Below, piece after piece: positions 20,893 to 38,561 of a stretch of DNA of 64,000 nucleotides. Source of the DNA: an uncultured bacterium (GTDB lineage Bacteria > Bacillota_I > Bacilli_A > RFN20 > CAG-826); assembly GCA_949293175.1 (NCBI GenBank), contig CASFCI010000003.1:78899-142898 (forward strand), in the 5' to 3' direction. The translations under genes and the position numbers were made by a program. Below the pieces are notes generated by a model. That model saw nothing but the letters and a program-made list of their open reading frames with translations, had not been told where the DNA came from and did not search any database. Position 1 is the stretch's first letter; each line of letters opens with the position of its first letter.

Positions 20893-23040
20893 CTAGGCCA
20901 TAGATGCGTTAGTGAGGCGCTTATTGTTGCACTTGACGCGCCGGTTGCGCCGTTTCATGTACACCCGGCCGCACTTCTCGATGTAGCGCCAATCGTGGAT
21001 CTCGATGGCGATACATAGCCTCCCCTCCAGCCGGAAATAGGCCATCGGGAGCGGGCCGAGCAGGCTTGGGAAAGCCGCGAGCCAAGCGAAGTAAAGCAAA
21101 TAGGAAAGCGCGAACAAGGCGGCATAGCCGGATAGGCTCAGCTTGAGGCAATAGGCGAGCGGGAAGCATATCGCGGCGGAAGCGGCAACCGGCGCCAGGC
21201 CCATGCAAAGCGCGAACGCGGATTCCTTCCCCTTGCCCCACCCAAGCACCGCTCCGGCGGCCCCAAAGATGGCCATGGCGGCGATCGCGAGTGCGAAAAC
21301 AGCCGGGTTGGGGGCGAAAACCAGCGCCACGTAGAAGCCCAAATAGGTCAGAAGGCCCGCAAGATAGGCATAGCCCCAATTCCTTCGGCCAATAGGCAGT
21401 GACGCCATCCCCAAGCAGATACCGCCGACGATGCCGTAAACCGAAAGGAATACCGCATTCGCCGATTGGCAGATCCCAAGCGGGCCGAGCAATATCGGAA
21501 GCAGCACGCCCAAGCCGATTGACAAACAGGTCGCGACGATGGCTAGCGGCCTAAACGAAAGCAATTCGCGGGCGCGGACCGCCTCATAGTCCTCCTGCCT
21601 GCGTAAAGGGCGCTTGAGGACGTAGCGGTTGTAATCGGATAGCAGCGGCACATAGGCCATCAAGACGATCATGAAGGCCTTGGTGTCGGTCATTAGGAAC
21701 GCGGTGCTCTCGGCCATGCCGTGTATCAGGAAGCCGATGAAGAAGACGAGGCACGGGAAGGCAGACTTCGAATGCCTTCGCCAGGCACGGAAGGCCACAT
21801 ATAGGAAATAGACCAGAATAAACAGGTAGGCAGCGAGCCGGATGACGCCCCCGCTGCAAAGTACATGGACGAAGCCGTTGTGGGCGTAGAAGATCCCGCC
21901 GGCGCTCGGCTTGTCGATATCGAACATCTTCCCCAATAGGTACCCGAAGTTGCTCTCCCCCACGCCGAATATCCATCTTATGGGGGAATCGGAGAGCATC
22001 ATGATGCTCGCATACCAGATGTCGAAGCGCGACTTCACCGACCCGGCATCGGTGCCCTCAAAGGCGAGCAACAGGTTATCGACCATCTTGGAGAAGACGA
22101 AGTTCTCGCCGAGCGTCTTGTAGAACCCTAGCAGGAACACCGCCAAAGGCGCGGCGAGGAAGAAGAAAAGCGTGATGAGGTTCCTCCGCCAATGCAGCCT
22201 GATGGTCAGCAGGAAGCGGTAAAGCAGGAAGGCGAATACCGCGAACATGGCAATCAGGATCGATGTCTTGGATATGACGAAGAAAAGCTCGCAGAACAAT
22301 ATCCCTATCAATAGGAAATTCCACCAATGGGGATGGTGGTTGTGGACGAATATCAAAGAGCAGATGCCGATGACCAGCATCATCCCGAACAGGTTGCGGT
22401 TATAGAAGAACGAGCTCGCGTACACCGAAGCCGTGACCTCGGTCTTGATCGAGAAGTACTTGACGTAGATTTGCCACTCCATGCCGATGCTCCAGGCGAC
22501 GGCGAAGAAGCTCACGAAGGCGGCGGCATAGAAGAGGAACATCAGCGACCTTCCGTCCTTCAGCAGCTGAGGCAATACGCAGAACAGGACATACAGGTAC
22601 CCCATGCCCACCACGAAAAGGATCATGAACCTGACCCGGTCCATGACATCAATGGAATAGGAGAACGCCGTCTTTGTCCCGTCTAGATGGTGGGTGAAGC
22701 CATCGATCGAGGAAGGGAACGCCAACAGCCCCACCGCGTTGGATATGATCAAAAGGCCGAACAGCCCGATGAATAGGTAATTTGCCTTCAGGCTTCCCTT
22801 CCTGATGGCCACGATCAGGAACAAGGCCATCGAGGCCAGGCAGGCGGCCATGGTCAGGAAGAACTCGACGTCGTCCATCAAGACGTAGTTCGGGGTGTTG
22901 AAGAAGGCAATAGCCTCCTCGAAATACGCCCCGACGCTTATGGACATCAGCCCCAGAAGCAGCAACAGCAGGTAAGGGGTGTTGCCTTTCCTCGCCCTGC
23001 CGACGCCGACTATGGACCAATCGATACGCCTTCGATGCAT
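20893..23040 (-). CDS. large polytopic membrane protein (O-antigen-ligase/Wzy-like?)
   Basis: 715 aa with more than 15 TM helices and a single large extracytoplasmic loop containing IFYAHNGFVHVL. The functional call is tentative. Confidence 0.35.
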   Translation of the reverse strand: MHRRRIDWSIVGVGRARKGNTPYLLLLLLGLMSISVGAYFEEAIAFFNTPNYVLMDDVEFFLTMAACLASMALFLIVAIRKGSLKANYLFIGLFGLLIISNAVGLLAFPSSIDGFTHHLDGTKTAFSYSIDVMDRVRFMILFVVGMGYLYVLFCVLPQLLKDGRSLMFLFYAAAFVSFFAVAWSIGMEWQIYVKYFSIKTEVTASVYASSFFYNRNLFGMMLVIGICSLIFVHNHHPHWWNFLLIGILFCELFFVISKTSILIAMFAVFAFLLYRFLLTIRLHWRRNLITLFFFLAAPLAVFLLGFYKTLGENFVFSKMVDNLLLAFEGTDAGSVKSRFDIWYASIMMLSDSPIRWIFGVGESNFGYLLGKMFDIDKPSAGGIFYAHNGFVHVLCSGGVIRLAAYLFILVYFLYVAFRAWRRHSKSAFPCLVFFIGFLIHGMAESTAFLMTDTKAFMIVLMAYVPLLSDYNRYVLKRPLRRQEDYEAVRARELLSFRPLAIVATCLSIGLGVLLPILLGPLGICQSANAVFLSVYGIVGGICLGMASLPIGRRNWGYAYLAGLLTYLGFYVALVFAPNPAVFALAIAAMAIFGAAGAVLGWGKGKESAFALCMGLAPVAASAAICFPLAYCLKLSLSGYAALFALSYLLYFAWLAAFPSLLGPLPMAYFRLEGRLCIAIEIHDWRYIEKCGRVYMKRRNRRVKCNNKRLTNASMA

Positions 23041-23231: not shown

Positions 23232-24107
23232 TTAGGCGCCAACGTCGGCATCGGCGTCAAGGGCGCCGAAGGCCAATTTGATGTTGATCATCTTGCCGCT
23301 GGCATCGTTCTGGTTTTGGACGATCGCGCCTTCCATCCAGATGGAAACGGTGACGTATAGGCGATTGACCCCGGTTGTTCCTTGGATGTCGCCGAGGTAG
23401 CAGGCCAACTCTTCGTTGTTCGTGTTGTCGGTTGGCATCGGATCAACGCCTGTAACAGTGGTGAAGAAATTATCTCCTTCGCCATAGGTTGCGGTGTCAT
23501 CGGTTGTGGTTCCGTCGACATAAGTCTTTAAGCTACCGGTTTCGGACCCTTCGGTGTTCTGCATGAAAACGAAATGGCCGGGCTTGGTGATGTCGTTGGC
23601 GCCGAAAGACGTCGGCTGCTCGCTGCCTTCCGTCTGGGCGTTGATGGCAACTTTTGTCCACCTTGCCAGCGGCTCGTTTTCGGTGCCGGTTATCGAGGAA
23701 TTGGCGGAGTCGAAGTAGCAGCTGATGGGATCGGTGCCTTGGTTGCTCAGGACGATGCCGAAGGTCAGATAGCCTTCAGTAGTGGTCTTATAGGCGATGG
23801 GCTCATCCCCAGTGCCCCAAACAGGCGCGTAGAAGGTCTGACCCTCGCGGGAAGAGACGTCGTATAGCGGGGTGTCGGAGGTTAGTGTGGCGGTGTTGGT
23901 GGTGCCGCCGGTGACCGGAGCGGAGGCCTCGAGATCGAAGTAGCCGATGTTCAAATTGCCGCGGGTGTTGGTGGCGGTGATGTTGGTGATGTTCATGGTC
24001 GCGGTGCGCGAGGCGGTGAACCACGCATAGGTGCCGGTCGCCCCAGCGGCAACGGTGCCGACGGTGAGGGCGGAGAGGGCTAGTAAGAGTTTGCTCTTGG
24101 TTTTCAT
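23232..24107 (-). CDS. secreted protein with SipW-cognate class signal peptide (TasA/camelysin-like fibre subunit)
   Basis: N-terminus MKTKSKLLLALSALTVGTVAAGATGTYAWFTASRTA matches the TasA-type signal (…GTYAYFTD…). T/G/N-rich beta-type body. 291 aa. Confidence 0.7.
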   Translation of the reverse strand: MKTKSKLLLALSALTVGTVAAGATGTYAWFTASRTATMNITNITATNTRGNLNIGYFDLEASAPVTGGTTNTATLTSDTPLYDVSSREGQTFYAPVWGTGDEPIAYKTTTEGYLTFGIVLSNQGTDPISCYFDSANSSITGTENEPLARWTKVAINAQTEGSEQPTSFGANDITKPGHFVFMQNTEGSETGSLKTYVDGTTTDDTATYGEGDNFFTTVTGVDPMPTDNTNNEELACYLGDIQGTTGVNRLYVTVSIWMEGAIVQNQNDASGKMINIKLAFGALDADADVGA

Positions 24108-24345
24108 GAAAAAAGTTCCTTTCGGCGATGCTTACTGCATCAAGCGAACGGATTCCAATGGCTTTCGACTTACGTCGCTATGTGGGCAACGCCTCGGAGG
24201 CCTCGGCCGCGGGCACGGCCTTCGTTTCCCTTCGAAGCGAGGTAATTCTAAAATGAACCGACGCGATTTTTCAACAACCAATCTTCCATTTCCTTCGTCA
24301 ATTGCCGTATTTGTGCTAATATCACCCTCGAAAGAAGACTTTGCC

Positions 24346-24729
24346 ATGGACAAAAAGAAGAAAATCCTGCTGTGGGCGGCGGGCATAGCCGAGGCCGCGA
24401 TTATCATATTCGGCCTGGTGGTATCGATTCTGGTGATCGTCACCTACAACTCCCCCGAGGAATTCCCGGCCACCTACAAAGAGCTCAACCTTGCGGAAAA
24501 CGGCCCGATGATCGGGTATTTCCAGAACAACGCGACGGTTTTCTTCCTCGTGATAGTCCTTCCCCTGCTGCTCATACTGGCCGTCGATATCGTCTACCTC
24601 GTCTACTTCGCATTGAAGCGGGAATCCAAGCTAAGCGACTCCGAGCGGAAGATCATCGCCGAGAAGGCGAAAGAAGAGGCCAAGGCGGAACTGTTGAAGG
24701 AACTGGAAGAGGAGTCGACCAAGAAATAG
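24346..24729 (+). CDS. small two-TM membrane protein
   Basis: Met at 24346 (MDKKKKILLWAAGIAEAAIIIFGLVVSILVIV...) is preceded by gaaagaag. Two hydrophobic helices precede a charged C-terminal tail. The tracked ORF start at 24031 overlaps the convergent TasA-like gene and is unlikely. Confidence 0.4.
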   Translation: MDKKKKILLWAAGIAEAAIIIFGLVVSILVIVTYNSPEEFPATYKELNLAENGPMIGYFQNNATVFFLVIVLPLLLILAVDIVYLVYFALKRESKLSDSERKIIAEKAKEEAKAELLKELEEESTKK

Positions 24730-24745: not shown

Positions 24746-24772
24746 ATCGCCCCACGCGGGCGTTTTATTTTG
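24746..24772 (+). terminator. putative intrinsic terminator
   Basis: CGCCCcacgcGGGCG followed by ttttatttt, just after the stop of the small membrane protein gene. Confidence 0.45.
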
Positions 24773-24784
24773 CCCGCACGGCTA

Positions 24785-24816
24785 TTGACATGCACCGGCG
24801 ATAAGGCAAATAATAG
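24785..24816 (+). promoter_or_regulatory. candidate sigma70-type promoter (TTGACA ... TAATAG) for fibre operon 1
   Basis: TTGACA at 24785 and a TAATAG-like -10 near 24811; the spacing is long, so this is weak. It lies immediately upstream of the riboswitch-like leader. Confidence 0.25.
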
Positions 24817-24817
24817 C

Positions 24818-24900
24818 GGCGTGAAAGGCAAAGCCAGGGAAACCTGGCGGCGCAAAACTAAAGGGCCTAAGCGAAAGACGGCAGCCAGTTACCCCAGGAA
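24818..24900 (+). ncRNA. candidate c-di-GMP-I (GEMM-like) riboswitch aptamer, copy 1
   Basis: aGGCAAAgCC followed by hairpin CAGG-GAAA-CCTG (GNRA loop). Then GGCGCAAAACTAAAGGGCC, a CCUAAG element, and GGCAGCCAG. It resembles the GEMM core (GGCAAACC ... GACGCAAAGCC). It lies about 120 nt upstream of the operon start at 25021. Confidence 0.45.
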
Positions 24901-25020
24901 GCAGGAGATCATCTCCGCGGGCAACTGAGCTGCATTTTCCTTGCTTCCACTAGGGCTAAGCCCCCAATCCCCGGGAATGGATTCCAATGGTAATACCGAG
25001 GAGAAGGAGCGCCCGCCTTG

Positions 25021-25977
25021 ATGATAGGCGGAAAAAAGGATTTTTCAGCCGTGCCCAAAAAGAAGAAAGAGAAAAAGGTCAAGCAGGACCTGCCTAAGAT
25101 CGACGCCATCGGCATGAAGGGCGTTTTGACGCCCGAGAAAGCCGCCAAGCGCAGGAAGAGGCGGAATATAGCCATCGCCGTCGGCTCCACCTCAGCCGCG
25201 GTTTTGGCCATGCTCATGATCATCGCCTTCCTCGGAAGGGTAAGCGGCAACTTCACCATCTCCATCGACCCCCGCGATTTCTCAAATCGCCTGGGCCTAT
25301 CCTACGAGGTCGATGGCTCCATGACCTCAACCATGCTTGGATCGGGCCTATCCGAGGCCAAGCCGGTCGCGGCCAGTCAGGTGTTCAACCACATCGACAG
25401 CTTCGATTCCTCCGCGCAGCTTTCGGGCGAGAACTCGCTTTACGAGGGGGAAGGTGACAGTCGGCGCAACTACGCGCTCGTGTACACCTGGTACCTACGG
25501 AATAAGACCGACGACGAGGTGACCTACCGGGTCACGCTCAACGTCAGCGACTACGTATCCCCCACCAACGAGGCGATCGAGCCTTACGAGTATCTGCGCG
25601 TGGCCGTCTTCGTCAACCCGGTGCTGACCTTCCCGGGCGCCGAGCAGACCCACGACTACACCGTCTATGGGCTGCAGTCGCGCACCGCCGGGACCGCCGA
25701 GGACGATGACGACGTCAGGGAATGCATCTCGCAGTTCTCCACTGACGACGAGGGAAGAAGGAACCCGATGAGCACCGACAACCAGAAATCCTCGGGCTAC
25801 TGCACCCCCTTCCTCGACACCAAGGGAAGGATATTCGACCTATCGGGGATGACCATCGCCCCGAGCGCGGCGGTCAGGTACACGTTGGTGGCCTGGCTAG
25901 AGGGATACGATCCGGAATGCCGCGGAAAGGCACCTGAAGGCGCCTCGATGACGTTCTCGTTGGAATACCAGTCATAG
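25021..25977 (+). CDS. membrane-anchored secreted protein (TapA-like accessory/anchor candidate)
   Basis: ATG at 25021 has a strong SD (GGAGAAGGAG). The protein has a K-rich N-terminal region, one TM helix and an extracytoplasmic domain. It is the first gene of an 8-gene coupled operon. Confidence 0.5.
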   Translation: MIGGKKDFSAVPKKKKEKKVKQDLPKIDAIGMKGVLTPEKAAKRRKRRNIAIAVGSTSAAVLAMLMIIAFLGRVSGNFTISIDPRDFSNRLGLSYEVDGSMTSTMLGSGLSEAKPVAASQVFNHIDSFDSSAQLSGENSLYEGEGDSRRNYALVYTWYLRNKTDDEVTYRVTLNVSDYVSPTNEAIEPYEYLRVAVFVNPVLTFPGAEQTHDYTVYGLQSRTAGTAEDDDDVRECISQFSTDDEGRRNPMSTDNQKSSGYCTPFLDTKGRIFDLSGMTIAPSAAVRYTLVAWLEGYDPECRGKAPEGASMTFSLEYQS

Positions 25978-25981
25978 TTTC

Positions 25982-26959
25982 ATGGAAAGAAAAGGCAATC
26001 GGCTCGGCGTATACCTGGCCGTCATAGCCGCCTGCATGGGGCTGTCTTTGGCCTCATCCGTGACGGCGACCTACGCCTTCTTTGAGGTAAGCAGCTCGCA
26101 GAAGGTGCAGGGATTGGATTTTTCTTTCGCCGGCGAGGACGAGATAAAGATCGGGCTGCCGAACTCATTGCTAGGCGACGTCGCCTACTACCAAGACGTC
26201 GATTCCTCGATCCTGCAGGCCCATTACCCCGACATCCCCTCGTCAATAAGCACCGTCACCACGGCATTCGGGGGAAACAAAGGGGAGCTTCCGACCTTCT
26301 ACGCCGACCCGCCGCAGTTCACTAAAACCTCCCGCGGATTCATCCAGTTCGACGTGTATCTGCTGTCGAGCGAATCCTGCTATGTCTACCTAGAGGACGG
26401 CTCGGGCATTGAGGAGGACGCGACCTACAACCGAAGCCAGGAAGAGGCTTTGGGATTAGAGTCCGGAAGCCTCAAGCGGATAGAGCAGGCCAGCCGGATC
26501 GCCATGTCGTTTGACGGCGGCACCACCATCTTCGCCAAAGAGGGCCGCAGCATATCCTACGCCGCCCCGCTCGACCTCGACTTCGACGGCTATGCCGATT
26601 CAAAAGACGGCAAAGACGTCCTATACGGGGATTACCAAGGCGAGCCAACCTACATCCAAGACGAAGGCCACGTCTACCCCAACGGAGAGAAAACCGCGCC
26701 GGGAAGCCTGTCGATCGACCTAGACGGCGAAGGAATCGCGAAAGAGAGCAACGAATCCTTCTCTTCCTACGTCCACGACGGGGCCGCTTCCTCGCAGGGG
26801 AGCGCCGCCAAGCCGCTATTGCAGCTAGAGGCCAATAAGGCCAAGAAAATCACCATCAGCTTCTACGTCGAGGGCTTCGACCCCCTCGCGGACAACAGCC
26901 TAAGCGGGGCCCGGGCGAAACTAAGCCTCGGCTTCATCCCATTATTCCAAAACGACTAA
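25982..26959 (+). CDS. secreted protein with SipW-cognate class signal peptide (TasA-like)
   Basis: N-terminus ...LSLASSVTATYAFFEVSSSQK. 325 aa. Only a 4-nt gap from the upstream gene. Confidence 0.65.
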   Translation: MERKGNRLGVYLAVIAACMGLSLASSVTATYAFFEVSSSQKVQGLDFSFAGEDEIKIGLPNSLLGDVAYYQDVDSSILQAHYPDIPSSISTVTTAFGGNKGELPTFYADPPQFTKTSRGFIQFDVYLLSSESCYVYLEDGSGIEEDATYNRSQEEALGLESGSLKRIEQASRIAMSFDGGTTIFAKEGRSISYAAPLDLDFDGYADSKDGKDVLYGDYQGEPTYIQDEGHVYPNGEKTAPGSLSIDLDGEGIAKESNESFSSYVHDGAASSQGSAAKPLLQLEANKAKKITISFYVEGFDPLADNSLSGARAKLSLGFIPLFQND

Positions 26960-26968
26960 GGAGGGCAT

Positions 26969-28522
26969 ATGAGCGCTTACTTCGAATACCTAAAGCAGAT
27001 GATAATCGAGTTCTTCACCAACCTCGGACTTTTCTTCTCCGACGCGTTCGCCTATCCGTGGTCGAAGGTGCCGGGGCAGGTTGACTACTACAATTCGCTT
27101 TTCGCCAACTACTCGCCCGACTTCGGGGGAGGAGGATGGTTCTTCTTCATCCTGTTCCTAATCTTGCTCATCGCCGCCTTCGGGGCTTTGGGCTATCTTG
27201 TATACTACCTTATACGCCGCTACGTGCATTTCCGCGCCTCCACCGAAGACACCACTAAGTACCGCGAGGAGATCGAGCGGCTCAACCTCGAGCTATACCA
27301 CGCGCTCTCCGAGAAGGACCGCGTGTTGGGGCTGCAGGTCCATAGCCTAGCCACCGCCGGGATCGACGTCGACGCCCCCAAGGCGGAAGAAGGCGGGGAG
27401 AAGAAGGAAGAGGAGGTTAGCGAGGACGACGTCAGGTTCCCGAAGCTATGCGACGTCGACGCCCGCTACGCCACCCCGATGCGCCCCACCGTCCTGCCCG
27501 AGGACGCCGCCAATATATCGCTAGAGGGCATCTGCGAGCGGTTCCGCCTATTCTGCGCCTCCCAGCTCGGCCTTTACTACACCATCGAGACCATGCGGGA
27601 GTTCATCGCCTCCATCGGCACCTCCAAGATCATCATCCTCGAGGGTATATCCGGCACCGGCAAGACCTCCTTGCCCTACGCTTTTGGGCGCTTCATAAGG
27701 CACAACGCCGCCATCTGCTCGGTCCAGCCTAGCTGGCACGACCGCTCGGAGCTGCTCGGCTACTACAACGACTTCACCCACCGCTTCACCGAGACCGAGT
27801 TCCTCCGCGCCATCTACGAGGCCACCTACCGCGACGACCTATCCGTCGTCGTCCTCGACGAGATGAACCTCGCCCGCATCGAGTACTACTTCGCCGAGTT
27901 CCTCTCCATCATGGAGATGCCTAACGTCAGCGAGTGGAACATCTCATTGGTCGCCGCGCCGAGAAAAGACGACCCGAAGCACCTCACCGACGGGAAGCTC
28001 TTGATCCCGCAGAACATAATCTTCGTCGGCACCGCCAACAACGACGACTCGACCTTCACCATCACCGACAAGGTCTACGACCGCTCGATGTCGCTTTTCT
28101 TCGACAACAAGGGCATCCCCTTCGACTCGACCTTCACCGAGGCCTGCCCGCTGCCATACGAATACGTCGCCTCGCTATTCGAGAAGGCCAAGGCCGACTT
28201 CCCGCTATCGGCCAAAAACCGCGAGAAGTTCGAGTCCCTCGACGAGTTCGTCATCGCCAAGTTCCGCCTGGCCTTCGGCAACCGAATATTGCGCCAGATG
28301 GAGTCCTTCGTCCCCTGCTACGTCGCCTGCGGCGGGACCGAGCTCGAGGCCATCGACTACATCTTCGAGTCGAAGATCCTCAAGAAGTTCGAGGTGCTCA
28401 ACATCTCCTTCCTCCGCGATGAGCTGATGGACCTCGAGGCCGAGCTCACCAAGCTCTTCGGCAAGAACGAGTTCAAGCTGTCCAAAGCCAAGATAAGGAG
28501 CTTCCTCAAGACCGTAAGCTGA
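26969..28522 (+). CDS. membrane-anchored McrB-family AAA+ (GTPase-type) ATPase
   Basis: N-terminal TM helix (FFFILFLILLIAAFGALGYLVYYLI) and a coiled-coil. Walker A is IIILEGISGTGKTS. Walker B/McrB signature is VVVLDEMNLARIEYYFAEFLSIME (compare DEINRANxxxxFGEL). The NxxD-type segment FVGTANNDDS matches the McrB MNTADRS region. Confidence 0.65.
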   Translation: MSAYFEYLKQMIIEFFTNLGLFFSDAFAYPWSKVPGQVDYYNSLFANYSPDFGGGGWFFFILFLILLIAAFGALGYLVYYLIRRYVHFRASTEDTTKYREEIERLNLELYHALSEKDRVLGLQVHSLATAGIDVDAPKAEEGGEKKEEEVSEDDVRFPKLCDVDARYATPMRPTVLPEDAANISLEGICERFRLFCASQLGLYYTIETMREFIASIGTSKIIILEGISGTGKTSLPYAFGRFIRHNAAICSVQPSWHDRSELLGYYNDFTHRFTETEFLRAIYEATYRDDLSVVVLDEMNLARIEYYFAEFLSIMEMPNVSEWNISLVAAPRKDDPKHLTDGKLLIPQNIIFVGTANNDDSTFTITDKVYDRSMSLFFDNKGIPFDSTFTEACPLPYEYVASLFEKAKADFPLSAKNREKFESLDEFVIAKFRLAFGNRILRQMESFVPCYVACGGTELEAIDYIFESKILKKFEVLNISFLRDELMDLEAELTKLFGKNEFKLSKAKIRSFLKTVS

Positions 28523-28523
28523 T

Positions 28524-30650
28524 ATGCCAAAGGCCCGCACCACCCTTAGCCTTGCCGAGCGGGCATACCTAAGGAAGATAAAAACCCTGCTCACCCAAAG
28601 CGCCTCATTCTATGAGCTGCTGCTTTCGCTGCGCCAGGAGAGGAACACCTACCTCGCCCAGAAGTCGCGCCTCGAGGCCAAGTCCATCGACCCCTCCTTC
28701 ATCGACGAGCTCGAGAAGGGGTTCGACGCCATCGACGCGATCATCAAGAACCCCCGCACCTTCATCAAGGAGGACGACGTGCTGGTCGAGGCCGGAAGGG
28801 CCAAGCGGATCTCGCCCCGCTCGATAAGCCATCTGGCATCCCACACCCAATACGTCCATAACGTCGACGATGACGGCAACGTCACCCCGGAGAAGCTGAT
28901 GGTCCCGGAGTCCGACATCGACTACTGGATCTACGAGAACCGGTTCATCATGACCCTGATCAAGAAGTGCTCGGTCTTCATCCAGAAGAGACTTCTCTTC
29001 ATCAAGGACCATGGCGAGACCCGCGATTCCGAGGTGCTGCTGCTGCACACCGACCACAATGTCGGCGAGGTCAAGTACGAGGTCGACACCAGGATCAAGC
29101 TTTCCTGCGCCTCCACCGACTCGGGCAAAGCCAAGGTCAACGAGGACCTCTTGATCCGCCTCGCCAAGCTGCGCGAGCGGGTCGCCTACTTCGCCTCCTC
29201 GCCCTTCATGTCGGCCATGAAGGGGGCCAAGGAGGTCGCCAACCCGATCCACCCCACCAACCTGCTGGTCAAGAACCCGGAGTACAAGAAGGCCCTCGCC
29301 CTATGGAAGTTCATCGACTCCTACAAGGAACTCGGCATCGAGGTCTCCGTCAAGGAGGACAGCAAGAAGTTCAAAGACGACTACGTCGAGACGCTTTGCT
29401 CGCTTTTAGCCGCCTCGATCGTCACCCTCGAGGGGAACCTCGTCAAAGACGACGAGGTCAAGGCCAAGTCGACGAAGAAGAAGATAATCCCGAAGGTGCT
29501 CTTCTCGCTTGAGGACGAGACCTTCTACGACGGCCGCTTCCTCTACGACCAGTTCCCGCTCCGCGAGCGGAAGAAGATCAGCCCGCTCTACCCGACCGTC
29601 GAGGAATCGAAGGCCTACCGGGAGGAGTTGGAGCGCAAACGGGCCGAGGACAAGGCCAAGAAAGCCATCGTCGAAGCCGAGATCGAGCGCGCCAAGGAAC
29701 GCGAGATCGAGCTGCAGGCAAGGGCCAACCGCAAGATGCTAGAGGAACAGAGGAAGCAGGACGAGCGCGAGCTCATCCGCGCCGCCATCGAGGCCGAGAA
29801 GGCCAAGCTTTCCGAGCAGCTAGAGGCCAAGCGGAAGGCCGATCGGGCCGCCGAGGAGGAGCTGCGCAAGCTGCGCAAGGCGAGGATCATGATCGTCGAG
29901 GCCGGCAAGAAAGACCGCGCCGGAGAAAAGCCCGCCCCGAAGAGCAGCGACGGCTTCCCCGACGAGACCCCAATCGTCGTCGAGCAGACCCCGATCATCG
30001 CCTCCACCCCCGAGGAGCAGGGCATAAAGACCACCGTCGGCAAGCCCAAGCGGGTCCGCCGCACGGCCAAGAAAGTCACCAAGAAGGCCAAGCCGGCCAA
30101 GAGGGTAGAGGAAGAGAAGCCGCTGGAAGCGGAGACTGTTTCGGAATCGCCCGTCGAAGAGGAGCCAATCAAAGAGGAGGCCCCAAAGCAAGAGGACGTC
30201 GCCGCGATAATCTCCAGCGCCCCGGAAGAGGAACTGGCCAAACAGCAGTCCGCGCCCGCGGTGGAAGAGTCCGCCCCAATAGCCGAGGAGGCTCCCAAGG
30301 AAGAGACAAAGCCGGCGGAGGAGACCGAGCAAAAGCAGGATTCTTCAGAAGGTAAGGCCGAGGATAAAACCCCAGGCGAGCCCGAGGAAGAAGCCAAGGC
30401 CGAGCCGGAAAAGCCCGCAGATTCCAAGGATTCGGAGCAGGAAAAGCCCCAGGATTCAGCCTCGGAGAATAAGCCCGAGGATAAGAGGAAGAAGAAAGGC
30501 AAGGCCGCCCGCAAAGCCAAGAAAGAGGAGAAGAAGGCCGAGGAAGCCGCTAAGCCCAGCAAGCCGACCTACACCACCCTCAAGACCCGCTCCAAGCGCG
30601 GCGGCAGGAGCTTCGTCGTCGACTACGCTAGGAAAGGCAAAAGAAGATGA
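28524..30650 (+). CDS. partner protein of the McrB-like ATPase; structured N-half, coiled-coil, long E/K/P/A-rich disordered tail
   Basis: The start codon lies 1 nt after the upstream stop. Residues about 1-340 are ordered. Then a coiled-coil segment (EELERKRAEDKAKKAIVEAEIERAKE...). About 250 aa of acidic, proline-rich low complexity follow, ending in a K/R-rich patch. A McrC-like nuclease motif could not be confirmed. Confidence 0.5.
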   Translation: MPKARTTLSLAERAYLRKIKTLLTQSASFYELLLSLRQERNTYLAQKSRLEAKSIDPSFIDELEKGFDAIDAIIKNPRTFIKEDDVLVEAGRAKRISPRSISHLASHTQYVHNVDDDGNVTPEKLMVPESDIDYWIYENRFIMTLIKKCSVFIQKRLLFIKDHGETRDSEVLLLHTDHNVGEVKYEVDTRIKLSCASTDSGKAKVNEDLLIRLAKLRERVAYFASSPFMSAMKGAKEVANPIHPTNLLVKNPEYKKALALWKFIDSYKELGIEVSVKEDSKKFKDDYVETLCSLLAASIVTLEGNLVKDDEVKAKSTKKKIIPKVLFSLEDETFYDGRFLYDQFPLRERKKISPLYPTVEESKAYREELERKRAEDKAKKAIVEAEIERAKEREIELQARANRKMLEEQRKQDERELIRAAIEAEKAKLSEQLEAKRKADRAAEEELRKLRKARIMIVEAGKKDRAGEKPAPKSSDGFPDETPIVVEQTPIIASTPEEQGIKTTVGKPKRVRRTAKKVTKKAKPAKRVEEEKPLEAETVSESPVEEEPIKEEAPKQEDVAAIISSAPEEELAKQQSAPAVEESAPIAEEAPKEETKPAEETEQKQDSSEGKAEDKTPGEPEEEAKAEPEKPADSKDSEQEKPQDSASENKPEDKRKKKGKAARKAKKEEKKAEEAAKPSKPTYTTLKTRSKRGGRSFVVDYARKGKRR

Positions 30651-31432
30651 GGAAGTGGATCAGCTACACCATCAACGGCCTGCTCATCGCCCTGGTGGCG
30701 TTCTTTGCCTATTGCCAGATCTCGATGGTCGCCTCGATGGGTAGCAACTACGGCGTGCCCTCGGTATTCGGCTATTCCTTCCTCTACGTCGCGACCGACT
30801 CGATGGAGGGCGACCTGCCCGATTCGCTGCCGGTCGGCTCGGGCATCGTCATCAAGGACGAGGGGCCGGAGAACGTGCAGGTCGGGGACATCATCACCTT
30901 CTATTACCCCGAGCTCGGCGCGACCGACACCCACCGCGTCCACGAGATAGAGCGCAACCAGGACGGGACCCTCACCTTCTATACTAGGGGCGACAACCTC
31001 AACGCCCAGCTTTCCGGGGGATCCTGGAGCGAGGACTACCGCGAGGTGGTGCCGGAGTCCAATTACGTCGGCACGGTCGTATACAGCTCGCTGCCTTTCG
31101 GGAGCTTCCTAACCTACGTCAGCCCCCAGGTCCCCTCGGAGAAGAGCCATTCCAGCTGGGTGTTCCCGCTGCTGATCGTCACCCCGCTTTCCATCGCCGC
31201 CGTCTACTCCATAGCCGACATGGCCATCAAGCTGCGGAAAGAATCCAAGGCCGAGAAGGAGGAGCTCGAGCAGGCCAAGAAGCAATCCGGCATCGACTTA
31301 AACGACGAAGCCGCCGTTTTGGCCTTCGAGGAAAAGTGGCATTATAAGAAGGAGCTTCGCGAGGACATGCAGAAGCAGAAGGAAAAAGAGCTCCGAAAAT
31401 TAAGGAAAGAGCTTAGGAGGGAGAGAAGATGA
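30647..31432 (+). CDS. sipW: signal peptidase I, SipW/archaeal type (S26B)
   Basis: YVATDSMEG (SGSMEP-like catalytic Ser box), GDIITFYYP...THRVHEI and FYTRGDNLNAQ align with B. subtilis SipW motifs. C-terminal TM helix. ATGA overlap with the upstream gene. Confidence 0.75.
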   Translation: MRKWISYTINGLLIALVAFFAYCQISMVASMGSNYGVPSVFGYSFLYVATDSMEGDLPDSLPVGSGIVIKDEGPENVQVGDIITFYYPELGATDTHRVHEIERNQDGTLTFYTRGDNLNAQLSGGSWSEDYREVVPESNYVGTVVYSSLPFGSFLTYVSPQVPSEKSHSSWVFPLLIVTPLSIAAVYSIADMAIKLRKESKAEKEELEQAKKQSGIDLNDEAAVLAFEEKWHYKKELREDMQKQKEKELRKLRKELRRERR

Positions 31433-33021
31433 ACCAATCCCAGAAGCTTAGCCTAGGCCTATTCGCCGGGCTCGCCTGCCTCGACGCCGCCTGCTTCGCG
31501 GCCTTGATAAGCCTGTTGTCGCTCTCGCTTTCCTCCGGCCGCCCGGTCGCCGGGGACTCGCTTTGGGCGGTGCTCTGCCTATCGCTCTCATTCGCCATAT
31601 TGACCATCGGGTCTTTGTTCCCCCTATCGAGATTCATGACATCGTCGCTGAAGAGCAAGCGCATCAAGGAGATATTCGGCGAGGACCTTCCGATCTTCAC
31701 CCCAAAGCAGCTCGCCAGGATGGCAAGGAGGGCCAAGGCCGACGGCAGGAAGAACAAGCTGATCTGCCTCATGGTCTCGGTCAAGGGGCCGTCGAACTCA
31801 TCGGTTTCCTCGATGCAGAAGGAAAACGCCATCAAGGCCATGCGGCATTCCTACGATTTCCTCCGCGATAAATTGCCCTACGCCACGATCGGCTATTCGA
31901 TAATCGGCGGGTTCACCCTGCTCGAACTTGTCGAGGATGAGGCCGAGCGCCTCGACGAATACCGGGCCATCGTGCTCGAGCTTTCCTCCTCGCTGCAGAA
32001 CACCGGGGCCTTGCCCTACGCCTATCTTTTGGCCGGTGAATCCCGAAGGCTGGTAGAGAAGGGCAGGCGCATCGACGGCAAAGCGCTGCTGCAGGAGGCC
32101 GAATACGCCCTCCGGCATTCCGCCAACAACCGCCTTTCCTGCGACCTGCAGCCGTATAGCCCCTCCCTTCAGGAAGACGACGCGGCCCTGCACTGGCTCG
32201 ACACCGACCTCTCCTCCGCCATCGAGCGCGGCGAATTGATCGTTTTCTACCAGGCCAAGCGCTCGCTTAGAAGCGGCGGCTACTACGGGGCCGAGGCGCT
32301 GATCCGCTGGAAGCACCCCCGGAGGGGCCTATTGCCGCCATCGGTCTTCGTGCCCTATTGCGAATACTCCGGACGCATCGTCGAGATCGACCACTTCGTT
32401 TTCCTCTCCGCCTGCAAGGCAAAGCAGGAATGGGCCAAAGCCGGGAGGAAGCCGCTCACCATATCGGTCAACCTATCCCGCCGGACGGTATATGACCCCG
32501 GGCTGCTCGACTTCCTTTCCAGCACCGTCGAGAAGTACGGCGTCGACCCATCGGAGATGGAGCTTGAGCTAACCGAATCCCTCGCGGCCGAGAACCTGGT
32601 CTTCATCTCCTCGGTCATCAAGCGCATCAAGGAGCTCGGATTCAAGACCTCGATCGACGACTTCGGGATCGGCTATTCCTCGCTAAGTGCCCTCAAATCG
32701 ATACCTTTCGACGTCCTCAAGATAGACAAATCGTTCATCGACGACCTCGAGATCGAGAAGAAGTCCCGCGACATGGTCGGGTCGATCATCTCGCTGGTCC
32801 ATGCTTTAGGAATGAAGGTCGTGGCCGAGGGGGCCGAAAGCCTGAAGCAGGTCGAGATACTCTCCTCGCTCGGGGCCGATGGCATCCAGGGATACTACTT
32901 CTCCCGCCCGCTACGCAAAGACGCCTTCGAGGCGCTGGTCGAGGAAGACGAGGCCAGGCGCAGGAAGAAGGAGAAAGACGACCGCGATCGGCGCAAGGCC
33001 GAGAAGGAGGCAAGGCAATGA
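31429..33021 (+). CDS. membrane-anchored c-di-GMP phosphodiesterase (degenerate GGDEF + catalytic EAL)
   Basis: N-terminal TM region. The GGDEF position carries IGGFTLLE. EAL motifs are intact: EALIRW, ELELTES, DDFGIGYSSL, KIDKSFI, VAEGAES, QGYYFSRP. Confidence 0.8.
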   Translation: MNQSQKLSLGLFAGLACLDAACFAALISLLSLSLSSGRPVAGDSLWAVLCLSLSFAILTIGSLFPLSRFMTSSLKSKRIKEIFGEDLPIFTPKQLARMARRAKADGRKNKLICLMVSVKGPSNSSVSSMQKENAIKAMRHSYDFLRDKLPYATIGYSIIGGFTLLELVEDEAERLDEYRAIVLELSSSLQNTGALPYAYLLAGESRRLVEKGRRIDGKALLQEAEYALRHSANNRLSCDLQPYSPSLQEDDAALHWLDTDLSSAIERGELIVFYQAKRSLRSGGYYGAEALIRWKHPRRGLLPPSVFVPYCEYSGRIVEIDHFVFLSACKAKQEWAKAGRKPLTISVNLSRRTVYDPGLLDFLSSTVEKYGVDPSEMELELTESLAAENLVFISSVIKRIKELGFKTSIDDFGIGYSSLSALKSIPFDVLKIDKSFIDDLEIEKKSRDMVGSIISLVHALGMKVVAEGAESLKQVEILSSLGADGIQGYYFSRPLRKDAFEALVEEDEARRRKKEKDDRDRRKAEKEARQ

Positions 33022-33740
33022 TACTCATCGTCGGCGAAGACCAGGACGCCTTGCTCTACCTGCGCAACCGGCTAAACCTCGCCCGGGAGGAGAACATCAA
33101 CGACTACCTCCACGCCGCGGTTGGGACGCTCGGCGAGGAGAAGGTCGCCGTCTCCTGCGTTGGCATCGGGCTCAGCTTAGTCGGCATAAACACCGCCACC
33201 CTGCTTTCAGTATACGATCCGTATCTGGTCATCAACATCGGCTGCGTCGCCTCCATCAAGGGGACGCTCCACCAAGGCGACATCTTCATCCCCGAGCGCT
33301 ACTACGTCGAGGGCATAGACTATTCCGGCGACGGCAAGACCATATCCGGGCAGCTCCCGGGCCTGCCGCCTTTCTTCCTAACCGAGCCTAGCCTCGCCGA
33401 GAAGGCCGAATCAATCGGGTATGAGCTGGGCGGCAAATTCATTGAGCGCGCCTCCTTGCTAAGCGGGGACATGCGCCTGCTCGATGAACCAGAGTACCAG
33501 CAGAAGCTCAAGATGAGGTACGCCGGCTACTCGAGGCTCACCTGCTACGACAACTCCTCGTACGGCGTTGCCTTGGCCTGTTATCTCCGCAAAACCTCGC
33601 TTCTTTCGATAAAAGCCGTCAATTACGAGGCCAATGCCGTCTCCGAGCGGCTCAATTTCCGCCGCAAGGGACTCGAGGCGATGCCCTTCATCGGGCGCCT
33701 AGTGGCCGGGCTGCTGCTTAGCCTGTCGAAGGGCCGTTGA
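33018..33740 (+). CDS. purine nucleoside phosphorylase/MTA-SAH nucleosidase family (PNP_UDP_1) protein
   Basis: MILIVGEDQDA..., VAVSCVGIGLSLVGINTATLL..., YLVINIGCVAS and QGDIFIPE parallel MtnN motifs (MKIGIIGAMEEE / SGIGKVAAA / VINTGSAG / VGDIVVSD). It is the last gene of operon 1. Confidence 0.55.
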   Translation: MILIVGEDQDALLYLRNRLNLAREENINDYLHAAVGTLGEEKVAVSCVGIGLSLVGINTATLLSVYDPYLVINIGCVASIKGTLHQGDIFIPERYYVEGIDYSGDGKTISGQLPGLPPFFLTEPSLAEKAESIGYELGGKFIERASLLSGDMRLLDEPEYQQKLKMRYAGYSRLTCYDNSSYGVALACYLRKTSLLSIKAVNYEANAVSERLNFRRKGLEAMPFIGRLVAGLLLSLSKGR

Positions 33741-33765
33741 CGGATTTTATATGTAATATAAAAAC

Positions 33766-33793
33766 TTGATACGCTCCCGTATAAGTGTAGAAT
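33766..33793 (+). promoter_or_regulatory. candidate sigma70 promoter TTGATA-N16-TAGAAT for fibre operon 2
   Basis: It sits in an AT-rich spacer directly upstream of the second riboswitch-like leader. The geometry mirrors copy 1. Confidence 0.3.
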
Positions 33794-33797
33794 GAAC

Positions 33798-33875
33798 TCG
33801 ACAAAGGCAAACCTAGAGCGATCTAGGGGCGCAAAACTACAGGGCCTCTCCGAGGCAGCCAGGTGCCACTAATCC
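33798..33875 (+). ncRNA. candidate c-di-GMP-I (GEMM-like) riboswitch aptamer, copy 2
   Basis: aaaGGCAAACC followed by hairpin TAGA-GCGA-TCTA (GNRA loop). Then GGGGCGCAAAACTACAGGGCC, hairpin GGCCTC-tcc-GAGGC, and AGCCAGG. 18 of 19 identical to copy 1 over GGCGCAAAACTA(A/C)AGGGCC. It overlaps the tracked GTG start at 33863, which argues for the ATG at 33887. Confidence 0.5.
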
Positions 33876-33886
33876 AAAGCAAGACT

Positions 33887-36625
33887 ATGGCCACCTGTTC
33901 CTTCAAAACGAAATTAGCCCTATCGCTCACCGCGGCTTTTTCGTTTTTCGCCTTGGTCTTCTCCGTCGGCGGCATAACCTTGGCGGCCTACCTAAACGCC
34001 ATCGAGGCCGAGTATTCCAACAAGATCGGTTTCCGCGATCTGGGACAGTACTTCAACGGTGTCTCTACCGATTCCAATACTGGCAAGACAACCTACCAGA
34101 TAAGCAATGCGGATGAGTTCCGAAACCTCCAGATGCTGGTTTCGCTTGGGCTATTTGATGAAGATGACATATTCAATTTGACCTCCGATATCACCTGGAG
34201 TGGAACCGCCATGGCCCCGATCGGATCCGACGACATGCCGTTCAACTCGACCTTCAATGGCTGCGGGCATACCATATCCAACCTTCAAATCGCTTGTTCG
34301 GACGGGCGCGATGCCGGCCTTTTCGGGTATACCTCAATCAACAGCGAAGTGAAGAACCTCATCTTGGCAAGTCCCACCATCACCATCAATGCAAATTCAA
34401 ACGGTGGCAACGAGGTTTCGGGGTCACCGATTGAAGCGGTTTTGTCTACGGCGGCCAAAGGCATGCCAGAGATCGTGTTCTCAAATCCGGGTCAAGAAGT
34501 CACCGGAAGCATAAACGTCATCAACGATTCCGATAAGTCTCAATCCACCATCAAGGGATTCCCGCCAACCGTGCAAGACATCAACGGGAATTCTTACGAG
34601 GTCATATATGAATCGTCTGACGAAAACCTCATCAAAGCCCAGGGCGATGGATCTTTCCTGACTTTCAAAACTGAGACCGCGGCACCGAATTACGATCTTT
34701 TCGCCTGCACAATTACTTCCAAGGTTAAATACTTAATTGACGATAGGTTCGGATATTACGTTCTTGAACGTTATCAGTTCAACGTGTTGGGGAACGGCTT
34801 AGTCACAACTACCACAGATCAAGACGGCAACCACATGGGGGCGTTTAAGACAATCCACCCAAGCAACAACGAGCACAAAACATACGCCGGTTTTTTCATT
34901 GGGCACTGTGATGGAAAAGCCAATCATCTTGGTCTTGTTGGTGACGATGAGCAAGGCAATTTCAAAGCTAAATTAGTTATTAACGAAGGCTCCAGAAAGT
35001 ATATTTATTCATCAAGAGTCTTGATAGGGATGACAAGAAGCGACAACCCAATTGATGCCTCCGCCGGCGAATCAATGAGTATTACCTATGACTTTGATTC
35101 GCCAATCACCGAAGCGAATGTCACGAATGGCCCTACTGGAGAAATGTGGGTAAAAGACATAGAATCCGGATACGCAAATGCAAGTTATGCCTATGGGTCA
35201 AATTATTTAACTAACGAAGACCCGTATGATACCGGAAACGATAAAGATGTTAACCACCAGTGGGAAAACGCTGAGCTTCTAACCAAACCATACATTCCAA
35301 ACACAACCATTAGGGAATATTCGAAAATCTTTCCAGGCAGTAAACCATCCGCCGCGGAAGGGCCAAGCGGAACCAAACAAGCGACCAATTATTTTGCTAA
35401 CGTCAAACTCCCAGAATCCGATGAAACGACCAATAAAAGTTCATTCTTCGGCCTAGTTTTGGATGGTGGTTTAGGCGCCGGGACGATGACGCAAGTCGTT
35501 CATAAAGGAGGGTTGTTAAACTCCTATAGACGATGGGTAAGGGGCATATATGCAAATAACGGAATATGGCTTTGGTCAACAAAGAACCTCAGTCCTCTAT
35601 TCGGGGAAAACCTATTCTATATAAACATCAGGATTTCGTACGTTGCAACAAGAACTGGGGGCAATGAAGGACAAAACAGTTTTCAGATACTCGCAAATGC
35701 CTACAATCCCGAAGTAATATCAGGCGAAAATGAAGAACTGACTGGATCTTATGCGCAAAACTTATTTTGGCAGGACCTCCACTCTCCATACAATTACCAT
35801 CTCCAAAAGCAGGATTCTATGTACGATCCAACAAATTATCCAATCATAGACGATGGGAAGCTTCACTCGGCTGTTATTACATTGAAAATAGATCAAGACA
35901 ACAACAACTTTTTGGGTTCGATTTTCCAATCGTGGTTTGGAAACGAAAACTCCGAGATTCGATATCCAATGCTTGCAATAGGCATGGGTTCAAACCAAAA
36001 TCCGGACAGCATAAACGATTCTACGATGCGATACTATGCTGACATATATGAAGAAGAAAATTTAGTTGGCGATTCTCATTTTTTAACTTACGAAAGCAAT
36101 AAATTCGGATCTAATGGAAATGAAGACATAGGGAATTATTTATATGCCGCTTCCCTAATAGATGTTGGACTGGCCACTTATGGATATCAAACTTTCCAAA
36201 GAAACGGGGACGATACATTCCTTGGCTTGCCGAATTTGTCTCAAAGGTACCGAGATCACGAACGAGGCTATTTTAATTCTTATTTTACTGTAGAAAACGG
36301 CACCAAACTTTATATCAAGGATTTCCAAATGACCTTTACAAACAGGCAAGGAAACACCGAAGACATCATTTATGATGTCGATTATATTAATTCGCGAGAT
36401 CTCCCGATTTTTGAAGCTAATGCCTATTCTTACTGGCCAAGTTCGAGCAACGTATTGGTTGCATTCGACATAGACGGAAGTCAGGGGAACGAAGCTGTTT
36501 CTTTCTCTTTCTACCGGAATGCAAATGGCACGATATTTGGCAACTCCAGTAACACGAATGCTGGCTATGGTTTGACCAATTCTGGCGGAACGGGCTACAC
36601 CGACGCCACCTTGACGCAGGGGTAA
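33887..36625 (+). CDS. large secreted adhesin-like protein (SipW-cognate-like signal; GLUG/parallel beta-helix-like N-domain), AT-rich body
   Basis: N-terminus MATCSFKTKLALSLTAAFSFFALVFSVGGITLAAYLNAIEAEY. The GLUG-type motif is PFNSTFNGCGHTISNLQIACSDGRDAGLFGY. About 910 aa with an N/T/G/Y-rich beta body. GC drops sharply about 200 nt into the gene. The alternative tracked start at 33863 (GTG) overlaps the leader. Confidence 0.6.
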   Translation: MATCSFKTKLALSLTAAFSFFALVFSVGGITLAAYLNAIEAEYSNKIGFRDLGQYFNGVSTDSNTGKTTYQISNADEFRNLQMLVSLGLFDEDDIFNLTSDITWSGTAMAPIGSDDMPFNSTFNGCGHTISNLQIACSDGRDAGLFGYTSINSEVKNLILASPTITINANSNGGNEVSGSPIEAVLSTAAKGMPEIVFSNPGQEVTGSINVINDSDKSQSTIKGFPPTVQDINGNSYEVIYESSDENLIKAQGDGSFLTFKTETAAPNYDLFACTITSKVKYLIDDRFGYYVLERYQFNVLGNGLVTTTTDQDGNHMGAFKTIHPSNNEHKTYAGFFIGHCDGKANHLGLVGDDEQGNFKAKLVINEGSRKYIYSSRVLIGMTRSDNPIDASAGESMSITYDFDSPITEANVTNGPTGEMWVKDIESGYANASYAYGSNYLTNEDPYDTGNDKDVNHQWENAELLTKPYIPNTTIREYSKIFPGSKPSAAEGPSGTKQATNYFANVKLPESDETTNKSSFFGLVLDGGLGAGTMTQVVHKGGLLNSYRRWVRGIYANNGIWLWSTKNLSPLFGENLFYINIRISYVATRTGGNEGQNSFQILANAYNPEVISGENEELTGSYAQNLFWQDLHSPYNYHLQKQDSMYDPTNYPIIDDGKLHSAVITLKIDQDNNNFLGSIFQSWFGNENSEIRYPMLAIGMGSNQNPDSINDSTMRYYADIYEEENLVGDSHFLTYESNKFGSNGNEDIGNYLYAASLIDVGLATYGYQTFQRNGDDTFLGLPNLSQRYRDHERGYFNSYFTVENGTKLYIKDFQMTFTNRQGNTEDIIYDVDYINSRDLPIFEANAYSYWPSSSNVLVAFDIDGSQGNEAVSFSFYRNANGTIFGNSSNTNAGYGLTNSGGTGYTDATLTQG

Positions 36626-36631
36626 ACATCG

Positions 36632-38559: not shown

Positions 38560-38561
38560 CC

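Follow-up and report, generated by a model that had tools for sequence, protein, structure and literature searches.

Class I riboswitches for cyclic di-GMP (c-di-GMP) are typified by the Vc2 RNA of Vibrio cholerae (structure 3IRW), the archetype of Rfam family RF01051. In Vc2, G20 contacts the Hoogsteen edge of one ligand guanine and C92 forms a Watson-Crick pair with the other, and an A at position 20 marks the 3',3'-cGAMP (cyclic GMP-AMP) or bispecific state (PMC6140456). In Bacillus thuringiensis, the c-di-GMP-I RNA Bc2 precedes cap, the gene for the collagen adhesion protein, and acts as an ON switch by anti-termination (PMC4933901). SipW-type signal peptidases, in turn, are found in systems such as the sipW-bsaA system of Clostridium perfringens (PMC7395162). 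In the literature that we searched, no paper connects a sipW operon, or the cassette described below, with a c-di-GMP riboswitch. Here, we analyze a stretch of 64,000 nucleotides (nt) from an uncultured gut bacterium of the Bacillota (contig CASFCI010000003.1; "the window" hereafter denotes this whole 64-kb stretch), in which two leader RNAs (copy 1 and copy 2) precede neighboring operons that encode putative secreted proteins. We consider it very probable that canonical class I aptamers head the two operons and switch them on when bound to c-di-GMP, with surface or extracellular proteins as the output and an EAL-domain protein as feedback.

Results

We scanned the whole window with cmscan against the 4227 families of Rfam 15 at their gathering thresholds and recovered two matches, both to the c-di-GMP-I (GEMM-I) family RF01051 and both on the plus strand. 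Copy 1 spans positions 24817-24896 (63.3 bits, E = 4.8e-10) and copy 2 spans positions 33796-33870 (52.6 bits, E = 2e-7); the gathering threshold is 35, and both copies align full-length to the model (positions 1-87). No other Rfam family reached gathering anywhere in the 64 kb, and the c-di-GMP-II family (RF01786) gave zero matches at that threshold across the window. An initial annotation of this DNA had proposed c-di-GMP-I aptamers at 24818-24900 and 33798-33875 and had named RF01051 and RF01786 as the models to compare. The scan upholds the class I identity, well above gathering in both copies, and moves the boundaries by a few bases; all of the motifs listed for copy 1 could also be read at the positions given. 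The second motif had, however, been described as near-identical, and the copies are only 72% identical over 75 aligned positions, as would be expected of two RNAs that have the family core in common. Judged by their sequences, both leaders are ordinary members of a known riboswitch family. They are paralogous single switches 9 kb apart, each heading its own transcription unit.

The core of copy 1 starts with GGCAAAGCC (24827-24835) and continues with a GAAA-capped hairpin (GCCAGG-GAAA-CCUGGC, 24833-24848), GGCGCAAAACUAAAGGGCC (24849-24867), the receptor-like element CCUAAG (24866-24871) and GGCAGCCAG (24880-24888). Its elements run in the order GGCAAA, tetraloop hairpin, GGCGCAAA and a second hairpin (P2) that contains CCUAAG and is closed by GGC-AG-CC-AGUU. 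Copy 2 keeps this core, but its tetraloop is GCGA and its P2 is short, without the receptor-like element. Both copies show the two-hairpin architecture, in which GGCAAA and (G/A)CGCAAA flank a GNRA-capped first hairpin and ..AGCC.. closes the second, and at the sequence level they carry every defining feature of RF01051. For the ligand-contact bases, Vc2 numbering was placed onto the Rfam columns from what we take to be the Vc2 sequence. The mapping is self-consistent: A47, presumably the intercalating base, falls on the first A after GACGC, and C44 falls on the C of GAC. The equivalents of G20, C44, A47, G83 and C92 lie at 24827, 24851, 24854, 24884 and 24892 in copy 1. In copy 2, those of G20, A47 and C92 lie at 33806, 33833 and 33866, and the C44 and G83 equivalents are also present. 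Both copies are of the canonical G/A/C type and are therefore expected to bind c-di-GMP, their predicted ligand.

The association of the aptamers with their genes is conserved. A search with the PNP-like gene that ends operon 1 identified a 100%-identical locus in the metagenome-assembled genome of Candidatus Alloenteromonas pullicola (chicken gut; Bacillota incertae sedis) and a 40%-identical locus (L002), whose cassette proteins are 40-68% identical to those of the window and in which Rfam calls two c-di-GMP-I aptamers. Locus L001 shows a base difference from the window at the end of copy 2, and the window comes from a close relative and not from the L001 assembly. Scanning metagenomes with the AAA+ protein of operon 1 returned at least 432 relatives, from which 80 loci were kept, and a covariance model built from four aptamers (window and L002) found 56 aptamers in the kept loci. 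We judged aptamer presence in the 34 loci, the window included, whose sequence extended 4 kb or more upstream of the AAA+ gene; 33 carry an aptamer on the same strand, 1.4-5.7 kb upstream of that gene. In 13 further loci, an independent Rfam test also called 13 aptamers. The sole long locus without an aptamer is L066 (1-21488), in which the best score of a cmsearch with filters off was 7.5 bits; this rules out a hidden aptamer, and the riboswitch is truly absent. Downstream of SipW, EAL and PNP-like genes were likewise not detected in L066; this single case (n = 1) may point to joint gain or loss of the riboswitch and the EAL feedback gene. The contig of L002 (CAVGNR010000015.1) is labelled as an Escherichia coli cleanbin yet carries a Bacillota-type cassette, and the bin label looks wrong.

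Covariation across the orthologous loci, a check proposed in the initial annotation, supports the aptamer stems; none of the computational checks named there refuted the riboswitch call. We compared 51 distinct aptamers at 17 base pairs with 500 shuffles and with controls in which the pairing partner was slid. Standard pairs occupied 97.2% of the cells, compared to 84.7% in the shuffles and 16-41% with slid partners. The observed percentage is inflated by an alignment fitted to a model from four of the same sequences; compensatory counts are less affected. Compensatory double changes occurred in nine of the 17 pairs, the double-changed cells numbered 120 (33 in shuffles), and not one of the 500 shuffles scored as high in covariation as the real alignment. 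In the tetraloop hairpin, all six pairs covary, and a pair in P2 splits between CG (25) and UA (25).

Downstream of copy 1, the minimum free energy (MFE) structure is a terminator hairpin with a U-tract (24881-24946, plus strand). The aptamer's 3' strand (24881-24894) doubles as the 5' arm of the hairpin (24881-24933), the 3' arm spans 24919-24933, an inner hairpin (24901-24918) is enclosed, and the tail (24934-24946) reads A-UUUU-CCUUGCUU. With a nearest-neighbor model, this fold is the MFE of 24817-24948 and is 13.2 kcal/mol more stable than the fold in which the aptamer is enforced. The same design recurs in 33 of 38 distinct orthologous leaders, counting those with a terminator hairpin of -12 kcal/mol or lower, a U-run and a 5' arm that begins within the last 22 nt of the aptamer; most of the hairpins range from -20 to -31 kcal/mol. 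The aptamer and terminator of copy 1 are mutually exclusive structures. Because both need the same strand, a ligand-stabilized aptamer must prevent termination, and the model predicts a genetic ON switch by anti-termination, with the direction in vivo deduced from these folds.

Copy 2 has a different platform. Its MFE structure is a start-codon sequestor (33860-33897, plus strand) in which CAGGUGCCA (33860-33868), the 3' strand of the aptamer, pairs with UGG-C-CACCUG (33887-33897) and so covers the start codon (AUG, 33887-33889); the fold with the aptamer enforced is less stable by 7.9 kcal/mol. The space is too small for a classical terminator. A weak UUCCUUC run follows the hairpin, and termination may contribute at copy 2. 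By inspection, L028:2054-2128 carries an analogous platform; of the orthologous second leaders, some build a terminator on the 3' strand of the aptamer and the others cover the ribosome-binding site and first codons with a similar hairpin. Translation in these leaders typically begins 19-29 nt past the aptamer end, and ATG 33887 lies at +17. Because these platforms and the start spacing agree, we took ATG 33887 as the start of the 912-amino acid (aa) protein that begins operon 2. Copy 2 would then be a translational ON switch.

Each aptamer sits almost directly behind a sigma-70-like promoter on the plus strand. The promoter of operon 1 (24785-24814) consists of TTGACA, an 18-nt spacer and AATAAT, with 11 of 12 consensus matches; the 900-nt upstream region holds three promoter-like sites against 0.4 expected from shuffles. 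That of operon 2 (33766-33793) consists of TTGATA, a 16-nt spacer and TAGAAT, with 10 of 12 matches. The gap between promoter and aptamer is 2-3 nt in both copies (2 nt in copy 1). Transcription of operon 1 would start at about 24820-24822, and with the starts predicted for both copies, the transcript has about 6 nt before the G20 equivalent. Upstream, an intrinsic-terminator-like site (24748-24771, plus strand; stem CGCCCCACGCGGGCG then TTTTATTTTG) ends the preceding gene (24031-24729) and may isolate the riboswitch transcription unit from it. Shortly upstream of the riboswitch region, on the minus strand (20893-23040), is a gene for a 715-aa Wzy_C/O-antigen-ligase-like membrane protein, another cell-envelope function beside the cassette.

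The post-terminator leader of copy 1 (24947-25020, plus strand) carries a Shine-Dalgarno sequence, GGAGAAGGAG, at 25000-25009 and partly resembles a clade-specific conserved structured element (UUCYAAUGGUAA). In one sub-clade (L011:7715-7810, L012 and L016-L020), the interval between terminator and start codon holds this second conserved structured element, with ..AGGGC..GCCC and GGACC..GUGUUCUAAUGGUAAAC-GAAA-GUUUGGUCC and compensatory changes in 7 of 14 predicted pairs; in the window (24947-25005) the element is partial, with UUCCAAUGGUAA retained. Scanned permissively with Rfam for a second RNA family, positions 24890-25040 of the window and 7690-7900 of L011 returned only noise, the window having no match at E <= 10. 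More distant orthologous leaders have YUGGGACA directly past the U-tract instead. Tandem aptamers, arranged head-to-tail before a single terminator, were seen in L030 (6689-6768 and 6770-6857), L031 (730-805 and 807-895) and L028 (6777 to about 6935); in L031, Rfam at gathering calls the second aptamer only.

Operon 1 (25021-33740) contains seven genes, all on the plus strand. The 318-aa product of gene 1 (25021-25977) matches no family; it has a basic N-terminus, a single transmembrane segment and, at the C-terminus, the motif W-LEG-Y-DPEC, and its orthologues (24-40% identity) are present in nearly all loci. The product of gene 2 (25982-26959; 325 aa) is a putative SipW substrate with a signal peptide that ends in ..SSVTATYAFF; the orthologues carry the motif ..T.AW[FY]. 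Genes 1 and 2 have a C-terminal Y.EG[WF]D block in common (hhalign E = 4.5e-4, probability 33%), as the anchor and secreted families at large have a Y/W-LEG-W/Y-D block, with weak similarity. Gene 3 (26969-28522) encodes a 517-aa McrB-like AAA+ protein (AAA_5) with an N-terminal hydrophobic segment. Its AAA_5 score (20.6 bits) is slightly under the Pfam cutoff of 22 bits, McrB structures match at E = 2e-4 and the PADLOC candidate family PDC-M26A matches at E = 1.9e-39. This is the most conserved protein of the cassette (68% identity between the window and L002; 49-68% across loci). Gene 4 (28524-30650) encodes a 708-aa DUF2357 protein (28.3 bits, cutoff 23.3) with a long tail of about 350 aa rich in Lys, Glu, Ala and Pro; Pfam detected no nuclease domain in the protein. 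The gene 3 and gene 4 pair (26969-30650) sits beside SipW and the secreted proteins.

The signal peptidase that the initial annotation had called SipW is encoded by gene 5 (30647-31432) and matches the archaeal/ER-type signal peptidase I model TIGR02228 (61.4 bits, cutoff 51.85). It scores 54.9 bits against the Bacillus subtilis SipW equivalog NF046067, under the 190-bit cutoff, and is thus a SipW-type enzyme rather than the B. subtilis orthologue. Gene 6 (31429-33021) encodes a membrane protein with an intact EAL domain (PF00563, 217.9 bits) in which we read the catalytic motifs EALIRW, NLS, ELTES, DDFGIG, KIDKSF, EGAES and QGYYF; the protein is predicted to be a c-di-GMP phosphodiesterase and looks catalytically intact. 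The operon had been thought to end in this gene, which is indeed present but penultimate. It is followed by gene 7 (33018-33740), which is PNP_UDP_1 or methylthioadenosine/S-adenosylhomocysteine nucleosidase-like (49.8 bits; all nucleosidase equivalogs score under their cutoffs). The gene order (anchor, secreted protein, AAA+, DUF2357, SipW, EAL, PNP) is kept across loci, with one to four signal-peptide proteins after the anchor and a degenerate EAL gene after PNP.

Copy 2 heads operon 2 (33887-41561, plus strand). The first gene (33887-36625) encodes the 912-aa secreted protein, the next two (36632-37597 and 37594-38559) encode 321-aa proteins whose signal peptides carry ..ATYAWF, and the last (38562-41561) encodes a membrane protein of 999 aa. 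A Pfam search of the operon matched only a degenerate EAL domain in the 999-aa protein (37 bits), which has neither the EAL nor the DDFG motif; the protein may serve as a c-di-GMP receptor and not as an enzyme. In most orthologous loci, the gene for this protein lies directly 3' of the PNP-like gene (window 33741-38561 compared with L002-L020). In the window, promoter 2, riboswitch copy 2 and three secreted-protein genes are inserted between the two. Second riboswitch-headed operons adjoin the cassette in many loci, in varying orientation (convergent in L002 and L003), and encode a small and a very large ..T.AWF protein.

The putative SipW substrates have no recognizable relatives among described families. 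No similarity to TasA/camelysin (Peptidase_M73) was found in Pfam or NCBIfam for the proteins encoded at 25982-26959, 36632-37597 and 37594-38559, and the family profile had no sequence match in the PDB. None of ten orthologues of the secreted proteins reached the cutoff of a Pfam family. Relatives of gene 2 numbered 2 by single-sequence search and 15 by profile search, and AlphaFold2 run on a 16-sequence gene 2 alignment gave a model with a mean predicted local distance difference test (pLDDT) score of 35.2, unusable for fold comparison. These putative substrates are probably surface or extracellular structural proteins. Their "fibre" label is reasonable given the linkage to SipW, and it is not a result.

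Discussion

The most likely reading of the locus is that of two operons for secreted surface proteins that are turned on at high c-di-GMP. In the ligand-free state of copy 1, the aptamer 3' strand (24881-24894) would pair with 24919-24933 and transcription would stop before gene 1. With c-di-GMP bound, the aptamer would keep this strand, the terminator could not form and operon 1 would be read through. The ligand-free 3' strand of copy 2 would similarly pair with the start-codon region (33887-33897), and ligand binding would free the start. High c-di-GMP would, in this way, induce SipW, the proteins with ..T.AW[FY] signal peptides and the membrane McrB-like AAA+/DUF2357 pair. The co-induced EAL phosphodiesterase would lower c-di-GMP, a negative feedback that would limit the response. 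The ON direction fits c-di-GMP signaling in general, which usually promotes surface structures, and agrees with the anti-terminator switch demonstrated for Bc2 before an adhesin gene (PMC4933901).

Several observations, in addition to the inflated pairing percentage, weigh against this reading. The GGDEF/GGEEF motif is absent from all frames of the window, and the source of c-di-GMP is thus unseen there. The secreted proteins of the window match no Pfam or NCBIfam model and no PDB sequence, which makes "fibre" and "adhesin" interpretations. The U-tract of copy 1 is short (UUUU then CCUU) and was not flagged by a simple terminator scan, so termination efficiency is uncertain. Lastly, copy 2 contains an alternative in-frame GTG for the 912-aa protein (33863), and its use would invert or abolish the ON logic. 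That start would make the switches, or copy 2 at least, OFF switches, as both the GTG and its GAGG Shine-Dalgarno (33852-33855) lie inside the aptamer, where ligand binding would occlude them. The 7-nt spacing between GAGG and GTG is good, ATG 33887 has no clear Shine-Dalgarno and the open reading frame listing extends the 912-aa frame to 33863. The GTG is, however, also buried in the ligand-free hairpin (33860-33897); occluded in both states, it would not be regulated. It is a less likely start than ATG 33887, which the start spacing of the orthologous second leaders fits. Further, in several of those leaders a terminator is built on the 3' strand of the aptamer, as expected of ON logic, and the terminator and aptamer of copy 1 share one strand in a way compatible with ON logic only. 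We regard OFF switching as rather unlikely.

Another alternative is that the aptamers sense cGAMP, as GEMM-Ib riboswitches do, or both dinucleotides. Of the 53 related aptamers that have a base at the equivalent of position 20 (alignment column 11), 31 have A, 15 have G, 6 have C and 1 has U. A20 is the signature of cGAMP riboswitches, and a G20A mutant of Vc2 binds both ligands (PMC6140456). L071 scores best as the Rfam variant c-di-GMP-I-GGC, marginally (59.2 against a gathering threshold of 59). Both window copies have G20, however, with a C at the C92 equivalent, and wild-type G20 RNA binds cGAMP at about 10 uM and c-di-GMP in the picomolar range (PMC6140456). Operon 1 also encodes an intact EAL domain, of a family that acts on c-di-GMP, and the EAL gene accompanies A20-type aptamers as well; aptamers of all position-20 types head the same EAL-containing cassette. 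Sensing of cGAMP, alone or beside c-di-GMP, thus seems very improbable for the window copies. The C20 state belongs to the L002 clade (examples of the column are in L030:6689-6768, L011:7613-7691 and L002:100-177). We know of no earlier description of it; C20 might read the guanine Hoogsteen edge as a protonated C. The AAA_5/DUF2357 pair invites yet another interpretation, that of a McrBC-like anti-phage defense under c-di-GMP control in place of a surface-structure operon. DUF2357 proteins accompany McrB-like ATPases, nucleosidases of the PNP type occur as defense effectors, and the AAA+ protein is distantly McrB-like and matches PDC-M26A. Against this, PDC-M26A is a candidate system only, the other operon proteins have no PADLOC match, the AAA+ protein has its N-terminal hydrophobic segment and the DUF2357 protein has no nuclease domain that Pfam detects. 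Moreover, in dozens of loci the AAA+ gene is invariably linked to SipW, to one to four signal-peptide proteins and to a membrane-anchored paralogue, unlike a cytoplasmic restriction module. We rejected defense as the main interpretation on the strength of this invariant linkage and hold it to be unlikely. That the aptamer-like sequences regulate nothing, being relics in decay or matches by chance, is barely credible, given their E values, their position in 33 of 34 loci with 49-68% protein identity, the compensatory changes in their stems and the conservation of the promoters and overlapping terminators.

Returning to the two predicted c-di-GMP-responsive ON switches, as riboswitches they are routine additions to a well-characterized family, which Rfam-based annotation would find automatically; their value lies in the context. 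The regulated system is the less-charted part. The riboswitches indicate that the lineage uses c-di-GMP signaling and that a conserved secreted-protein cassette with SipW and a membrane AAA+ protein belongs to its high-c-di-GMP, presumably sessile or adhesive, program. As a tentative proposal, which we consider possible rather than probable, they are the master controls of an undescribed surface-assembly cassette, widespread in uncultured Bacillota of the gut, rumen and digesters, in which orphan proteins processed by SipW are handled by the membrane AAA+/DUF2357 pair, with EAL feedback and a degenerate-EAL receptor. If so, the G/A/C variation at position 20 would be a natural series for the drift of cyclic-dinucleotide specificity while the regulated genes stay constant. 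Because the link between riboswitch and operon is nearly invariant among dozens of distant relatives, it is a strong guilt-by-association clue to the function of the orphan families. The riboswitches, for their part, offer a functional way into an uncultured lineage of the chicken gut, a relative of Candidatus Alloenteromonas pullicola.

The window aptamers resemble Vc2 in GGCAAA, the GNRA-capped hairpin, (G/A)CGCAAA and a P2 closed by AGCC, and both copies carry the equivalents of G20, A47, C92 and the C44-G83 pair (PMC6140456). They differ in a shorter P2, especially in copy 2 (GCGA loop, no receptor element), in a predicted transcription start that would leave almost no P1 stem, in the expression platform and in the host, an uncultured gut lineage of the Bacillota. 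The GEMM-Ib cGAMP riboswitches of Geobacter (Gs1761, for instance) have the same fold and Rfam clan, and many of the orthologous leaders carry their A20. Both window copies, in contrast, are in the c-di-GMP-specific G20 state and do not have the adenine. Some orthologous leaders contain two head-to-tail aptamers, as in the tandem c-di-GMP-I arrangements reviewed in PMC9481103, whereas those of the window are 9 kb apart in separate transcription units.

The closest regulatory parallel is with Bc2, also a class I aptamer in a 5' untranslated region of the Bacillota, where ligand blocks a terminator and a surface-protein gene is read through, as the folds predict for copy 1. Bc2 controls a single gene for a sortase-type adhesin; copy 1, by its predicted mechanism, would control a seven-gene cassette with SipW, AAA+ and EAL proteins, and the window adds a second paralogous switch on the neighboring operon. 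In the regulated genes, the likeness is to the matrix-fibre operons SipW-TasA/TapA of B. subtilis and SipW-BsaA of C. perfringens, in which a SipW-type peptidase gene also lies beside proteins with an unusual common signal-peptide motif. The putative substrates in the window, however, match no TasA/camelysin, Pfam or NCBIfam model and no PDB sequence, and operon 1 adds to the SipW arrangement a membrane McrB-like AAA+ protein, a DUF2357 protein, an EAL protein and a nucleosidase-like gene.

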